Source: Planctomycetota bacterium
GTDB lineage: Bacteria > Planctomycetota > UBA1135 > UBA2386
Reading direction: 5' to 3'
Assembly: GCA_046290465.1 (NCBI GenBank)
Contig: JBKAGP010000001.1
Coordinates: 4,480,001-4,544,000, forward strand
DNA: 64,000 nucleotides
The notes under the pieces are model-generated. The model was not told the origin of the DNA, made no database searches, and was given only the letters and a program-made list of their open reading frames with translations. The position numbers and the translations under genes are program-made. Shown piece after piece: positions 37,577 through 53,946 of this stretch. Position 1 is the first letter of the stretch. Every line of letters begins with the position of its first letter.

Positions 37577-38266
37577 ATGGCGACGATCCAGGCCAGAACC
37601 GCCCCGGGCACGCTGGTGCTCGACCCCAACCTTCCGGCGCACGTCGCCTTGCGCCGGTCGCTGCCGCGTTGGCGCGCGGTCGCGTGCAGCGAACTGATCG
37701 GACGGGACGTCACCGCCGGCGCCAGGCTGTGCGTCGCCGACTGGCGGATCTTCGGCGCGGTGCCGTACCTGCGCGAAACGCTGATGCAGAACCGCGGCCG
37801 CACGATCGCCCTCGTCGGCCTGTCCGACGAACCGTGCGACGACGGCGCGCTCGCGATGCTGCGCCGCTTCGCCGGCGAGGTCGTCGCGCTGGTCTCGGCC
37901 GCGCAGCCGTCGTGGACCAGCCGCCTGCTGGTGCCGGTCTCGACGGTCGGTCCCGCCGGCGTCGCCGACGCGATCGTCGAGGCGTGCCGTCGGCCGGCCG
38001 CGGACCTCGGCAGCGTCGACGTGCACCTGCGTGAGGCGATCCAATACATGCAGCGCGGCGACGACGACGGCGCGTTCCAGGCATCGGCACGCGCGCTGGC
38101 GATGGCGCCGGACCAGCCCGGCATCATCGCGGACGTCGCGAGACTGCTCGCTCGCATGGGCCGTTCGGCAGACGGCGAACAGCTCTGCCGCACGTTCTTG
38201 CTGCAGCGCCCCGACAGCGCGCCGGTCCAGGCCGCGCTCGGCGAACTCGCACCGCTGCGCTGCTGA
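37577..38266 (+). CDS. Hypothetical protein with C-terminal TPR
   Basis: GDDDGAF..RALAMAPD..LARMGR..LLQRPDS TPR pattern. Confidence 0.65.
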   Translation: MATIQARTAPGTLVLDPNLPAHVALRRSLPRWRAVACSELIGRDVTAGARLCVADWRIFGAVPYLRETLMQNRGRTIALVGLSDEPCDDGALAMLRRFAGEVVALVSAAQPSWTSRLLVPVSTVGPAGVADAIVEACRRPAADLGSVDVHLREAIQYMQRGDDDGAFQASARALAMAPDQPGIIADVARLLARMGRSADGEQLCRTFLLQRPDSAPVQAALGELAPLRC

Positions 38267-38360: not shown

Positions 38361-40799
38361 ATGGAATCCCGATTGCGCCTGTTGTTGACCCTGTTGCTGA
38401 CGCTGACCGCGTCGCTGTATGCGCAGGGCGATCCCAAGTTCAAGCTGAAGGCCGCGCTCGAGCCGGCAACGGCCGCGCCGGGCCAGGAGGTCCAGCTGGT
38501 GCTGACCGCGACGACGCAGCACGGCTGGCACGCCTACGGCACGCTCGAGACCAGCAACGTGCCGGTGTCGCTCGACACGTCGGGGCTCGACCTGGTCGGG
38601 CTCGAACGCAACGGTGAGGCCGAGATCCCGCCGGGCATCCCGGACGTCTCGCAGTATGGCACGCAGTATCCGTTGCCCGAGTCGTTCCGCGTGACGGTGC
38701 CGCTGAAGGTCGCGGCCGACGCGAGCGGCGAGCTGAAGGTCGCGGGATCCCTCGGCTACCAGATCTGTGAGCAGGGCCGCTGCGAAGCGCCGAACGAGGC
38801 GCCGTTCGAGGCGGCCGGCAAGCTCAGCGAGGGCAGCGGCGAACCGGTTGCGCAGCAGCCGCAGGAGCCGATCCCGGTGCCGGGCCTCGGCACGGTGCCC
38901 GGCCTGATGCTCGACCCCGACCAGAAGGTCACGATCACGGCGAAGTTCGAACCGGCGATCGTGCGCGCCGGCGAGGTGACGACGCTGGTGCTCGACGTCG
39001 AGGTCGTCGACGGCTGGCATGCCTACGGCGTGCTCGAGACCGGCCAGATCCCGGTCGGCTACGACCCGTCCAAGCAGGACGTCGGCATCCTCGAGTTCGA
39101 AGGCCAGCCGGTGATCCCGCCAGGCGACCCGACGGACTTCCACGGCACGACGCAGTACCAGCTGCCGCACCACTTCGAGGTCAAGCAGACGTTCCGCGTG
39201 CCGGCCGACGCCGAGCCGCGCCAACTCGCGATCGGGGGCGTGCTCGACTACCAGGTCTGCGACGAGAACGGCTGCGACCAGCCGACCGAAGGCGAGTACG
39301 AGGCCGAGCTCGAGATCGAGGCGGGCGAGGCGCGTGAGGGCCGGACCGAGGCGCCGAAGGTCGAGCCGCAGGACGACGGTTCGGTCGGCGAGGAGACGCT
39401 TGCCAGCCCCGACGATCCGTTCGCCAGCTGGTGGACGCTGATCCTCGCGTGCATCGGCGGCGGCCTGTTCGCCCTGGCGATGCCGTGCACCTATCCGATG
39501 ATCCCGATCACGTTCAGCTTCTTCACCAAGCAGGCGGAGAAGACCGGCGGCAACGTGCTGCCGCTGACGATCACCTACGGCCTGGGCATCATCGCGATGT
39601 TCGTGTTCGTCGGGGTCGCGCTCTCGGCGATCATCATCGACGTCGTCAACCACTGGGCGACCAACACCGTCATCGGGGTGATGTTCTTCTTCTTCGCCGC
39701 GGTGCTGTTCGGATGGGTCAACCTGAACCCGCCGCAGTTCATGCAGAAGCTGGCGACCAAGGCGCAGATGTCGGCCATGGGCGGCGGCAACGAAGGGAGC
39801 ACCGGCCTGTCGCTCGGCGGCCTGGCCGGCGTGTTCTTCATGGGTGCCACGCTGGTGCTGACCTCGTTCACCTGCACGGCGCCGATCGTCGGCTCGCTGA
39901 TCGGCGGCATCGCCAAGCACGGCTGGGAAAAGGTCGCCGTCGGCATGGGCATCTTCGGCCTGACGATGGCGATCCCGTTCATGGTGCTGTCGCTGATGCC
40001 GACCAAGGTCAAGGCGATGCCCAAGTCCGGCGAGTGGATGGAGACGCTCAAGATCTCGCTCGGCTTCGTCGAGCTGGCGGCGGCCTTCAAGTTCGTCTCG
40101 ATGGTCGACATCGCGTTCGGCTGGGACGCGCTGCCGCGCGAGCTGTTCCTGATGATCTGGGCTGCGGTGTTCGGCATGTGGGCGCTCTACCTGTTCGGCG
40201 TGATCCGCAAGGCGGGCACGCCGAGCATGGGGGTGAGCAGCGGCCGGATGGCCAGCGGCATGATCGTCACCCTGCTCGCGACCTACTTCTTGTTCGGCGC
40301 GATGGGCAACCGCATGGACTCGATCATGACGAGCTTCGTGCCGGCCTACTCCAACCGCATCGTCATGAAGGGCGAAGGCGGCGCGGCCAAGGTCGAGACG
40401 CACATGGTCGTCAAGGACGACCCGGCGAAGGCGATCGAGGTCGCCAAGGCCGAGGACAAACTCGTGCTCTACAACTTCACCGGCTTCAATTGAGGCAGCT
40501 GCCGCATCATGGAAGAACAGATCTTCCTCGAGGAGGCGGTCGCCTCCCTCATGAAGCAGCACCTGGTCGAAGCGCGTCTGCACACCGATTCGCAGAAGCA
40601 CCTGACCGACGAGCAGTTCGCCAACAACAAGAAGGCGCAGGCGGAGCTCGCCGGCGTCACGACCAACCCGTACTTCGTCATGGTCGACCCGACCACCGGC
40701 GACAAGGTCGCGGAGTTCTCGCTGTCCGGCGGCTTCGGCGCCTGGAAGGGCAACTGGATCCAGTTCTTGCGGGGCGTCGCCAAGAAGACCGGGCGGTAG
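38361..40799 (+). CDS. dsbD: DsbD-type thiol:disulfide interchange protein, probable selenoprotein (in-frame TGA 40491-40493 = Sec711)
   Basis: Two N-terminal Ig-like domains (YQICEQGRC, YQVCDENGC); TM domain with PCTYPMIP and FTCTAP; thioredoxin domain NFTGFN*GSCRIMEE continues in frame to TAG at 40797. Confidence 0.88.
40492..40546 (+). promoter_or_regulatory. Candidate bacterial SECIS stem-loop
   Basis: Upper stem GGAAGA(40511-16)/TCTTCC(40522-27) with loop ACAGA, 23 nt after the UGA; lower pairing GCTGCC/GGCGGT and GAGGC/GCCTC. Confidence 0.65.
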
Positions 40800-40806
40800 T
40801 CGGCGC

Positions 40807-40836
40807 GGCCTGGATGCCGGCTGCGGCATCCAGGCC
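40807..40836. terminator. 13-bp perfect hairpin between convergent genes
   Basis: GGCCTGGATGCCG-GCTG-CGGCATCCAGGCC; no U-tract. Confidence 0.55.
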
Positions 40837-40924
40837 CGTATTCGCGCGCGTCGAAGCCCGCTGGGTTGCGATGCGCAAAGACCGAACGCCTACGGCAACC
40901 GGGCGCAGGGCCCGCTGACGCGGC

Positions 40925-41998
40925 CTACCGACCGCGCCTGCCCTTCGCCTTCTGGAACGGCAGCCGCCCGGCCTCGACGCACCACGTCATCTTCTGCTTC
41001 CACACCCGAGCGCCCTTCTGGTCGTACTCGGCCACCCGCGTGTTCTCCGCGACCAGCGTGTTGCCGTTGGGCAGGCGGTCGGCGTCGCTCGGGGACGACA
41101 GCCCCTTGAGCGTCCAGACGCGCTTGCCCTGCGCGTCGACCTCGACGACCTCGCCCTTGTTGCGCAGTGTGATCAGCGTGTTGCCGTTGGGCAGGCGGTC
41201 CGCGTCGTGGGCATTGGGCATGCCTTCGACCTGCCAGACGATCTTCTTGGCCTCGTTGACCTCGATCACGCGGTCCTTCAGCACGTCGCTGATCAGGTAG
41301 GTGCCGGCCGCAGTCTGCTCGACGTCGAACGGGCGGATGTTGTCGTCGTAGCGCCAGACGGTCTTGCCGTCCTTGTCGACGATCAGCACCTCACTGCCGA
41401 ACGTGTTGGCGATCAGCGTGTTGCCGACCGTGAGGCGCGACGCGCAGTAGGGGTTCTTCAGCCCTTCGTACTGCCAGACCCGCTTGCCGTTGCGGTCGAC
41501 CTCGGTGATCCGGCTGACGCTGAACTCGGTGATCAGCGTGTTGCCGTTGGCGAGGCGCTTGACGTCCCAGGCGCCGAACACGTCGTCGAGCACCCAGACA
41601 TGCTTGCCGTTGGCGTCCATCTCGACGATGCGGTTCTCGGAGTAGTCCGCGACCAGCGTGTTGCCGCGCGGGCCGAACCGCTTCGGGTCCTGACGGTCCG
41701 GATCGCGCTCGTCGTCGGGCGCGACCGCGTGCTGGTCGTCGCCGTCGTCGAGCCACGCGATCCCGCCGACGACGCCGGCACCGCCGAGCAGGCAGGCGGC
41801 GAGCAGCCACCGCGACAGGCGCGTCGCCGGTGGCGGCGCGTGCGCTGCGCGCGACCGCGGTTCGCCCGCGAGGGCGTCGAGGATCCGGCTGGTGAGAGAA
41901 CGGTCGGGGCCGAGGCCGCCGAGCTCCGTCAAGGTCGCTTCCATCTGCATCTCCTCCGCACGTTGTCGTGCCGTTGGTCGGTCTTCTCGTTGGGTCAT
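40925..41998 (-). CDS. Putative anti-sigma factor with extracytoplasmic beta-propeller
   Basis: ATGA overlap with the ECF sigma gene; one TM; repeats of RLxNGNTLI..V.EVDxxGKxVW. Confidence 0.75.
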   Translation of the reverse strand: MTQREDRPTARQRAEEMQMEATLTELGGLGPDRSLTSRILDALAGEPRSRAAHAPPPATRLSRWLLAACLLGGAGVVGGIAWLDDGDDQHAVAPDDERDPDRQDPKRFGPRGNTLVADYSENRIVEMDANGKHVWVLDDVFGAWDVKRLANGNTLITEFSVSRITEVDRNGKRVWQYEGLKNPYCASRLTVGNTLIANTFGSEVLIVDKDGKTVWRYDDNIRPFDVEQTAAGTYLISDVLKDRVIEVNEAKKIVWQVEGMPNAHDADRLPNGNTLITLRNKGEVVEVDAQGKRVWTLKGLSSPSDADRLPNGNTLVAENTRVAEYDQKGARVWKQKMTWCVEAGRLPFQKAKGRRGR

Positions 41999-42510
41999 CG
42001 CATCGTCCTCCCGATGCAGTCGCGCAGCAGCTTGCGGGTGCGCTGCAGCAGCGTCTTGAGTCCGTTGGGCTGCAGGTCGAGCGCGCGCGCGACGGCGTCA
42101 CGGTCCTGCGCGTCGTCGGCTCCGATGCCGTAGCTGAGCTCGATCGCGCGCCGCGCCCGCCCGTCGAGCCGCTGCATGCAGACCGCCAGGGCGTCGACCA
42201 GGCCGTCGCCACCGTCGCGCTCGGCGTCGCGATCCCACAGCGCGTCGACCTCGTCCATCAGCGCCGGGTCGCGCTGGCGATCCCGCACGTGGTGCAGCCA
42301 CGCGAAGCGCGCCGAGCGCCGCAAGAACGTCCAGGCTGCCGCCGGCTCCAGGTCGAGCGCGCCCTTCTGCAGCGCCGTGACGAACGTCTCCTGCGCCAGG
42401 TCGTCCGCCTCGTGCGGCGTCGCGCCGTGCATGCGCAGGTAGCGCCAGACCGGACGCAGGTGCCGATCGACGAACGCGCGCGCAGAAATGGCGGGTTCTC
42501 GATGGTTCAT
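41995..42510 (-). CDS. ECF RNA polymerase sigma factor
   Basis: ADDLAQETF, WTFL..AR, CMQRL, KTLLQRTRKLLRDC. Confidence 0.9.
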   Translation of the reverse strand: MNHREPAISARAFVDRHLRPVWRYLRMHGATPHEADDLAQETFVTALQKGALDLEPAAAWTFLRRSARFAWLHHVRDRQRDPALMDEVDALWDRDAERDGGDGLVDALAVCMQRLDGRARRAIELSYGIGADDAQDRDAVARALDLQPNGLKTLLQRTRKLLRDCIGRTMR

Positions 42511-42738
42511 CGCGGGGGCCGTGGACGTCAGCTGCACGCACCTCAATGCCCCGAGGCGCGTAGGTGCTATTCAACAAGTTCGAGAAAACCGCCGTGCCGT
42601 CGCGGCCGCGGCGGGTCCAGGTGACGCCGGCCTGCGCAGCGGCGCAAGCCCAGGAGCGTAGGGGATCGCCCCCGAGTCGCTTCGCGTAGGGGAGAAACCC
42701 ATCGAGAACCCGTCGAAATGCGTCCGATCGGGAGTGCG

Positions 42739-53489: not shown

Positions 53490-53845
53490 TCAGGCCTCGC
53501 CGCGCGCCGGGTAGTCGTTCTGCAGGATCCAGTCGAGCGACTTGAGCAGCGTCTCGGTGTGCGGCCGCGCGAACGGCATCGTCTGCAGCGACGACGCGTA
53601 GAGCGTGCCGTCGGGCCGGATCACGAACAGGCCGGGCTCGACGAACTGCGCCGGCTCCTTGTCGTTGACGCCGTTGGAGACGTAGAGGCCCCAAGCACGC
53701 GCGGTCTCGATCGACAGGCCGTAGCCGAGCGGCACCTTCTTGTCGTGTCATTCGGTAGACGTGCGCTCGGCCAGCTCGCGGTCGTTGACGCTCAGCATGA
53801 CGACGTCGATGCCGCGGCTCTGGAACTCAGCGTAGAAGCGCTCGG
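53490..53845 (-). pseudogene. AhpC/TSA-family redoxin remnant (5' half missing, internal TGA)
   Basis: EFQSRGIDVVMLS..TE*HDKKVPLGYGLS..ARAWGLY..FVEPGLF..PFARP..YPARG; no CxxC region and no start codon. Confidence 0.8.
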
Positions 53846-53847
53846 AT

Positions 53848-53946
53848 CGGCCGATCGCGGTCGAATACGCGATCACCGAGATGGGTCGCTCGGCGCTGGT
53901 CGTGCTCGAGAAGCTCAAGGCGTGGACCGAGGTCCACGGCCTCTAG
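53848..53946 (+). pseudogene. HxlR-family regulator C-terminal remnant
   Basis: RPIAVEYAITEMGRSALVVLEKLKAW matches the HxlR C-terminal motif; no N-terminal HTH. Confidence 0.7.

Follow-up and report, generated by a model that had tools for sequence, protein, structure and literature searches.

Can two neighbouring open reading frames (ORFs) that are parted by a single in-frame TGA encode one protein, and if so, which amino acid does the TGA specify? The question arises in a 64,000-nucleotide (nt) stretch of a Planctomycetota genome (contig JBKAGP010000001.1, positions 4,480,001 to 4,544,000; hereafter the window), where ORFs 38361..40493 (710 amino acids, aa) and 40509..40799 (96 aa) lie in one frame with nothing but TGA 40491-40493 and five sense codons between them. 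Translating the TGA as selenocysteine (Sec, U) yields an 812-aa protein with the sequence NFTGFN-U-GS-C-RIMEE, in which U711, followed by C714, takes the position of the attacking cysteine in the gamma domain of the reductant conduit DsbD. An earlier note on this DNA, made from the letters alone, had described both the ORF pair and the UGSC readthrough product, and both were reproduced here. The comparative evidence below indicates that this TGA is almost certainly decoded as selenocysteine, and that the product is very probably a single 812-aa inner-membrane conduit of the DsbD type, with Sec replacing the attacking Cys of its gamma domain.

The TGA itself is not an assembly lesion. In each of four public sequencing runs, drawn from four studies, one contig spans the site, and none shows a variant at the TGA or in the hairpins described below. 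Strain differences in these contigs amount to 0, 9, 12 and 14 letters over the stretch and to none within 40264-40779; given the 9, 12 and 14 differing letters, three of the four represent other strains. The earlier note had worried over apparent single-base lesions in the window, and at this site the contigs from all four runs answer that concern by reading TGA. To be set against this agreement, the comparison is one of assembled contigs rather than raw reads, and one run (X1) is possibly the source of the assembly. In RNA runs, just 0.09-0.11 of the sequence words were present.

A complete selenocysteine machinery under a standard genetic code

The search for selA, selB, selC and selD that the earlier note had called for returned the complete set. 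Matches to selA (453 bits, cut-off 268), selB (354, cut-off 242) and selD (352, cut-off 125) all passed their curated cut-offs, and a tRNA-Sec with a UCA anticodon scored 72.8 bits (Rfam cut-off 47). The selA and selD genes adjoin at G000:C1:1309619-1311945 (-); selB and tRNA-Sec lie elsewhere. The selD gene carries an in-frame TGA of its own (S-S-A-G-U-A-A-K), with no GU-loop hairpin by the rule used below. TGA is also the commonest stop in the genome, and because it ends 1534 of 2580 long ORFs, the genetic code is standard and the decoding of TGA as Sec is site-specific. The only UCA tRNA in a scan read at default stringency is tRNA-Sec (a low-stringency scan, which gave thousands of chance matches, was ignored).

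Stop usage and tRNA complement both bear on the idea that the TGA is read through as Cys or Trp, by a changed code or a suppressor tRNA, to give a CxxC or an inactive WxxC DsbD. Cysteine insertion via the Sec machinery under selenium shortage is known from eukaryotic work, and Cys forms of this gene are viable in Sec-positive genomes (G016, G021, G029 and others). Against this idea stand not only the prevalence of TGA as a stop and the lack of a second UCA tRNA, but also the absence of TGG from the site in 30 relatives' loci read without a codon filter, and the behaviour of GU-loop hairpins, which track TGA and vanish with Cys. We consider readthrough as Cys or Trp highly improbable.

TGA and cysteine codons alternate at the site across Planctomycetota

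All 61 genomes searched gave some match. The site is TGA in 43 of the relatives' best 50 loci and Cys in 7: the best 30 comprise 29 TGA and one TGC, with the frame open for 84-112 codons past the site, and the next 20 comprise 14 TGA and 6 Cys. One of the 7 Cys loci, L063 (G011), is a divergent second gene with a Cys-form gamma domain in a genome that also holds the TGA form. A sample of 301 genomes from the phylum gave matches at E 1e-45 in 160, and 90 loci were read, the 30 best and 60 hand-picked from about 150 listed rows so as to span families and both kinds. Pooling gave 142 sites, 107 of them TGA, or 133 distinct sites (98 TGA, 35 Cys), counts that represent no frequency since 60 loci were hand-picked; a spurious pattern match (L026:521-586) was removed before counting. 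The codons at the 142 sites were TGA or Cys only, where 110 of these sites were found with patterns admitting just those codons and the best 30 loci were read without that filter. Positions R, E, H, D and P, 3' of the TGA, are invariant among aligned relatives. The homologue survey suggested by the earlier note has therefore found what that note looked for, namely TGA in relatives, Cys otherwise, and conservation on both sides of the site.

On the tree, TGA forms are spread over at least 31 Planctomycetota families, and 13 Sec/Cys changes are required, of which well-supported (starred) branches force at least 9. This FastTree phylogeny is unrooted and gives no direction of change, and it is unreliable for the long row L063 and for the pair L128/L136. 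Because selA is found in 59 of 60 relatives and in 76 of 80 selected genomes, most Cys forms reside in Sec-capable genomes. Three of the four selected genomes without selA (G339, G213 and G087) have the Cys form, and they are also without selB, selD and tRNA-Sec. A gamma-domain search of the genome contigs returned 6 close loci only, and the taxa of ten homologue representatives were Planctomycetota only, or not given.

Among other homologues, L056 and L057 (G048 and G040) encode DsbD proteins with tandem gamma domains, CxxC in both. Four TGA-form homologues (L111, L126, L131 and L133) have about 190 codons past the site rather than about 95, which suggests that they may carry an extra C-terminal domain.

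In protein databases, the protein ends exactly before the site in 112 of the 120 top matches and in 97 of 150 cluster representatives, whereas 7 of the 120 and 48 of the 150 are full-length CxxC forms. All 19 matches to the downstream ORF are separate proteins of 81-104 aa, 'hypothetical' where named. The earlier note had anticipated that standard annotation would split or truncate such a gene, as these records do. The same records are, on the other hand, what one would see if the TGA were a true stop or a lesion, the product being a 710-aa alpha-alpha-beta protein served by a separate thioredoxin in the role of gamma, and the 96-aa ORF a remnant or a separate gene. This account could further draw on another in-frame TGA in the window, in a broken redoxin-like gene at 53750, and on a genome that speaks against Sec decoding: G233 (locus L118) has TGA at the site, yet none of selA, selB and selD passes its cut-off there, and the match to tRNA-Sec is weak (50.6 bits). 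The G233 assembly is 90% complete, in 140 contigs, and its family mate G330 has selA, selD and tRNA-Sec. A true stop would, however, have to fall exactly on the catalytic Cys in at least 31 families, alternate there with Cys codons only, and leave the R, E, H, D and P positions after it invariant; a lesion would have to be shared by four runs. Moreover, the 40509..40799 ORF begins 3' of C714, with both catalytic residues and a signal peptide absent. A true stop or lesion is thus extremely improbable in our judgement. Under Sec decoding, the annotation would be wrong across a phylum, with records that give a gamma-less DsbD and a hypothetical protein.

The central proposal of the earlier note, a UGA for Sec at the catalytic position of a thioredoxin domain, survived each finding that could have overturned it: the contigs do not read TGC or TGT, the Sec machinery is present, and close relatives are not uniformly Cys forms devoid of a conserved hairpin.

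Predicted architecture of the full-length protein

Pfam detects DsbD_N (PF11412) twice, DsbD_TM, and thioredoxin-like families that run across the TGA (Table 1). The beta domain scores 63.6 bits against PF02683 (cut-off 27.1) and is the sole match to this family (DsbD_TM; DsbD/CcdA) in the genome, a single contig that is 94% complete. The cysteines expected to act in electron transfer are well conserved: C136 and C141 are invariant in 99 sequences, C300 and C305 are each at least 90% conserved, and C376 and C505 are invariant in 28 and in 99 sequences, while two CxxxxC motifs lie N-terminal to the membrane domain in 97 of the 120 top homologues. The AlphaFold2 model (mean pLDDT 87.4) consists of two all-strand domains, eight long helical segments (seven by hydropathy) and a thioredoxin fold. 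Its gamma domain aligns with that of Bacteroides fragilis (3f9u; Z 15.9, root-mean-square deviation (rmsd) 2.6, 130 residues aligned) and with that of E. coli (1vrs_D; Z 11.8, rmsd 2.7, 114 aligned). A phmmer search of the alpha region against the PDB gave no match, and Foldseek with the full model gave generic immunoglobulin-like (Ig-like) matches only and none for the membrane domain, a result that excludes nothing.

Two hallmarks of a DsbD are present, an Ig-like alpha domain bearing a Cys pair and a membrane beta domain in which about eight helices hold two catalytic Cys; the third, a CxxC in gamma, is present solely if the TGA is Sec (UGSC). Because the helix count after the signal peptide is even, the alpha and gamma domains are placed outside the cytoplasm in this model. 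The trans-membrane relay with an extracytoplasmic UxxC that the earlier note envisaged is in line with the alpha-alpha-beta-gamma order and with this helix-count placement. Its assignment to DsbD is also supported, but it had overlooked the second alpha domain and the fact that both copies have a Cys pair.

Table 1. Predicted features of the Sec-containing DsbD gene (window coordinates).
Feature	Position	Strand	Basis or remark
Whole gene, predicted 812-aa selenocysteine DsbD (signal peptide, alpha 1, alpha 2, beta, gamma)	38361..40799	+	true stop TAG 40797-40799
Predicted signal peptide, residues 1-21	38361..38423	+	by-eye call from a basic N-terminus, a core rich in Leu (hydropathy 2.5) and a final A-x-A
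DsbD alpha domain 1, Ig-like all-beta, C136/C141 (CxxxxC)	38439..38825	+	PF11412 E 3.8e-10; all-strand model
DsbD alpha domain 2, Cys pair C300/C305	38928..39320	+	40% identity to alpha 1; structure model
Membrane (beta) domain of DsbD; C376 (in PC) and C505 are catalytic	39429..40301	+	PF02683 E 2.1e-17
DsbD gamma thioredoxin domain, putative U711-G-S-C714, invariant P770	40404..40796	+	Z 15.9 to 3f9u
In-frame TGA, putatively read as selenocysteine (U711)	40491..40493	+	
Hairpin 1, GGAAGA / loop ACAGA / TCTTCC, loop 23 nt after UGA	40511..40527	+	pair probability 1.0
Hairpin 2, GGAGGC / loop GGUC / GCCTCC, loop 44 nt after UGA	40532..40547	+	covariation, TGA-linked occurrence

Two conserved hairpins and the candidate insertion signal

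The 83-nt fold after the UGA is modestly non-random (z -2.11; 5/200 shuffles) and contains two hairpins, the second of which has a 6-bp stem and a 4-nt loop starting GG (-10.4 kcal/mol). Covariation was counted on 38 aligned TGA sites (alignment A2; 5 of the 43 were omitted, three identical to L009 and two with indels), where hairpin 2 shows 20 compensatory cells against 6.0 in shuffled alignments, with 0 of 500 shuffles as high and a score above all slid controls. Its occurrence is linked to TGA, since it is found at 55 of the 98 distinct TGA sites (26.3 expected from synonymous shuffles) versus 4 of the 35 Cys sites (2.9 expected). Fisher p values on these counts are inflated by kinship among the sequences and are given no weight. 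In 51 of these 55 sites it stands at exactly 44 nt, and its GU loop is kept through 17 stem/loop variants with synonymous compensatory changes; in the three nearest Cys genes, the loop has become GAUC. The Ala-Val-Ala under hairpin 2 is coded GCG GTC GCC in 33 of 39 cases, compared with 17.8% genome-wide. The GGUC loop also occurs in four redoxin genes of the genome, there at 31 nt. Taken together, these patterns make hairpin 2 the likely SelB site.

The earlier note had instead taken the GGAAGA/TCTTCC hairpin at 23 nt for the selenocysteine insertion sequence (SECIS). That hairpin is present, and Sec could be inserted through it, with hairpin 2 either arising from the conserved Ala-Val-Ala or acting as a secondary enhancer. 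Its loop falls inside the 16-37 nt window, and 92% of its cells are paired, with 8 compensatory cells versus 1.8 in shuffled alignments. In TGA genes it is found at 67 sites versus 33.5 from synonymous shuffles, and GTG serves as its Val codon in 19 of 20 TGA genes versus 2 of 13 Cys genes, indicating synonymous selection on hairpin 1 in TGA genes. In addition, 25 of the 98 TGA sites have a near GU loop and no far hairpin. On the other side, hairpin 1 is partly dictated by the M-E..F codons, its ACAGA loop varies among relatives and is without the N-G-U start seen in 23 of 30 other candidate selenoprotein genes of this genome, and neither the fixed 44-nt position of the GU loop in hairpin 2 nor its change to GAUC in Cys genes would be expected. 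We regard hairpin 1 as an unlikely SECIS for this gene, albeit one to be taken seriously, and favour the GGUC loop at 44 nt; in the DsbD gene here, hairpin 1 is probably a spacer, and in some relatives it would be the SECIS loop itself.

At the 98 TGA sites the GU loop is far only in 49, near only in 25, both in 6 and neither in 18, and where hairpin 2 has been lost, hairpin 1 often gains a GU loop (e.g. L024-L026). In 9 independent Sec/Cys pairs, presence of the GU-loop hairpin agrees with Sec in 5.8 and runs counter to it in 0.1 (median p 0.031). The earlier note had also asked whether other candidate genes share the hairpin: a hairpin with GU in the first or second loop position, 17-31 nt after the UGA, is present in 23 of the 30, and by the same rule the background, taken from ordinary Cys codons and from TGA stops, is 15-16%. 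None of the 30 has a far GU-loop hairpin only, whereas the DsbD gene has no GU loop at 17-31 nt and its only such loop is at 44 nt. Hairpin 2 thus resembles the consensus bacterial SECIS (bSECIS) in its stem and loop, but differs in that the loop lies 44 nt out, behind a second conserved hairpin. The caveat in the earlier note that hairpin 1 has no G in its first two loop positions is explained by the GGUC loop on the next hairpin, and the GAGGC/GCCTC pairing that it saw is real, although it belongs to this separate hairpin and not to hairpin 1. A lower stem proposed there, GCTGCC/GGCGGT, was rejected: the arms are complementary, but the pair probability is 0.0, there are 0 compensatory cells in the 38 TGA sites (500 of 500 shuffles as high), and the stem competes with hairpin 2.

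Several results weigh against hairpin 2 as the insertion signal. RNAalifold found no consensus structure for the 38 TGA sites, after which pairs were counted on named structures. The consensus bSECIS (G in the first two loop positions, 16-37 nt) is matched by neither hairpin alone, and the rule detects no GU-loop hairpin at 18 of the 98 TGA sites or in 7 of the 30 other candidates, including SelD. On independent pairs, the mutual exclusivity of near and far loops does not reach significance (median p 0.0625). Finally, the protein code partly forces both hairpins: a fold of -4 kcal/mol or lower over nt 16-41 is seen not only at far-only TGA sites (46 of 49) but likewise at plain Cys sites (23 of 28).

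The bSECIS model is already known to leave some selenoprotein genes outside (PMC13188914). That model would be extended, and some genes without a canonical element explained, by a SECIS loop placed 44 nt out past a spacer hairpin; if the tandem SECIS is true, such elements would escape the 16-37 nt rule of selenoprotein searches.

Comparison with known DsbD-like proteins and selenoproteins

The protein shares with E. coli DsbD (PDB 1vrs, 2fwf) the domain order, the combination of PF11412, PF02683 and a thioredoxin fold, and a Cys pair per domain, with U711 standing at the position of Cys461; it differs in having Sec at this attacking position and two alpha domains, each with CxxxxC. In the E. 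coli protein, electrons pass from thioredoxin to beta, gamma and alpha, Cys461 of gamma reducing the alpha disulfide, and this Cys has a pKa of 10.5 and is activated only on binding alpha (PMC2631958). As a point against a DsbD in the strict sense, the NCBIfam model for proteobacterial DsbD (PRK00293) scores 99.3 bits versus a cut-off of 330, and DsbD proteins of that type have a single alpha domain where this one has two. Within the DsbD superfamily, the protein falls close to the Bacteroides-type branch and outside the E. coli subfamily; its nearest solved relative, the Bacteroides fragilis gamma domain 3f9u, aligns over FTG-x-x-C-x-x-CR (E 6.2e-6).

TsoB (NCBIfam NF045694; rhodanese/DsbD fusion-like) is likewise a selenoprotein with DsbD beta and gamma parts, and it matches residues 353-751 (E 7e-21). 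However, the protein scores 73.9 bits against NF045694 (cut-off 805) and has one Sec in a gamma UxxC, two alpha domains and no rhodanese match, whereas TsoB is catalogued with two Sec in UxxxxU and a rhodanese-like domain (PMC13188914). The ScsB class is similar in its tandem Ig-like N-terminal domains (Foldseek E 2.9e-5 to PmScsB alpha 6c29, among many generic Ig matches), but the Lys that marks this class, at +8 from the first beta Cys, is Thr here (CTYPMIPIT), as it is in all 116 of the top 120 matches where that stretch was read. Furthermore, both Ig domains of the present protein bear a Cys pair, compared with alpha-A only in ScsB (PMC10907172). ScsB feeds envelope TlpA and a peroxiredoxin (PMC3322552), and because of this precedent a conduit feeding exported redoxin-type clients is plausible here.

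Sec in place of Cys is familiar from other thioredoxin UxxC motifs, and catalogues already include DsbD-gamma-like selenoproteins. Both the 'Thiol:disulfide interchange protein' and the GOS 'Trx-like 2' selenoproteins have UxxC in a DsbD-gamma-like thioredoxin domain, the latter under the CDD label cd02953 (PMC2398784). All 22 GOS reads of the latter were compared; they are mostly small signal-peptide thioredoxins, one of them resembling a proteobacterial DsbD gamma fragment, and none of the 22 has the motif of the Planctomycetota Sec-DsbD or a membrane domain. A 2026 catalogue of 119 prokaryotic selenoprotein families lists 'Thiol:disulfide interchange protein' (UxxC) and TsoB, and its accessible sections contain no alpha-beta-gamma DsbD with Sec in gamma and no mention of planctomycetes (PMC13188914). 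A literature search that covered few subscription papers gave no report of a full Sec-gamma DsbD or of a 44-nt SECIS, although catalogue supplements could hold members; related work includes BSepDB (PMC13326102), deep-Sep (PMC12013277), PMC1794560, PMC9312934 and PMC10778597. What goes beyond the routine in the present case is a full conduit with two putatively redox-active alpha domains, its status as sole conduit and the distant SECIS loop.

Candidate selenoproteome and proposed electron path

A coding-score scan of 42,594 TGA junctions kept 123, and the 30 other candidates were chosen by protein motif from these together with selD. With DsbD, the candidate selenoproteome of this genome (G000:C1) comprises at least 31 genes, with loops such as AGUU, CGUGA and GGUC. 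Nineteen of the 30 others have signal-peptide-like starts (by eye, hydropathy at least 1.8), five of these nineteen being redoxins with W-U-x-x-C; the family labels that we attach to other candidates (TlpA, MsrA, HMA) are presumptive. The genome also has 72 long ORFs with CxxCH and one PF01578 heme-attachment gene.

DsbD-type electron transfer by the 812-aa protein is very likely by analogy with E. coli DsbD. Electrons would pass from cytoplasmic thioredoxin to beta (C376/C505) and on to gamma (U711/C714), which would cycle as a selenenylsulfide. U711 would attack the disulfide of either alpha domain (C136/C141 or C300/C305), and the alpha domains would then reduce envelope clients. The likely clients, many of them TGA-containing in this genome, are exported redoxins, proteins of Msr-like and peroxiredoxin-like type, and cytochrome c maturation. 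A selenolate would be ionised and react faster in both directions. Sec at the attacking position would therefore remove or rewire the pKa-based control of DsbD, a point open to test in the Sec/Cys sister pairs that occur naturally, with at least 9 switches well supported. During decoding, SelB carrying Sec-tRNA would bind the GGUC loop of hairpin 2, with hairpin 1 folding out 17 nt, so that the loop effectively lies about 30 nt from the UGA.

On a larger scale, one can envisage a selenium-based envelope redox network in much of Planctomycetota, in which a single Sec-gamma DsbD with two redox-active alpha domains feeds exported selenoenzymes and selenium supply gates all reductant export, combined with a tandem SECIS whose loop has shifted between hairpins several times. 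We give this wider picture even odds. If the sole reductant conduit needs selenium, cytochrome c maturation and envelope repair need selenium too.

Elsewhere in the genome, a gene at G000:C1:2322227 (+), 2322782-2323081, encodes a signal-peptide protein with CLT-U-VPF and a DsbD_N domain in frame after the TGA; it is probably a selenoredoxin that has a DsbD alpha domain as fusion partner.

Genomic neighbourhood

The DsbD gene lies downstream of a gene for a TPR protein (37577-38266, +) and is convergent with an arylsulfotransferase-like gene that is accompanied by a sigma-70 region 2 gene (40925-42546, -); no redox operon was evident among the neighbours examined. The broken redoxin-like gene mentioned above (53493-53945, -; TGA 53750-53748) is a fragment with no upstream catalytic motif, no clear SECIS and an interrupted 5' end, and it looks broken rather than selenoprotein-coding. 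An inverted repeat (GGCCTGGATGCCG...CGGCATCCAGGCC) lies just past the DsbD stop, within 40800-40925, and in two strains 466 other letters replace 40856-40906. Within the arylsulfotransferase-like gene, a short stretch (41049-41087) recurs in several contigs of each run and is probably a repeated propeller motif.

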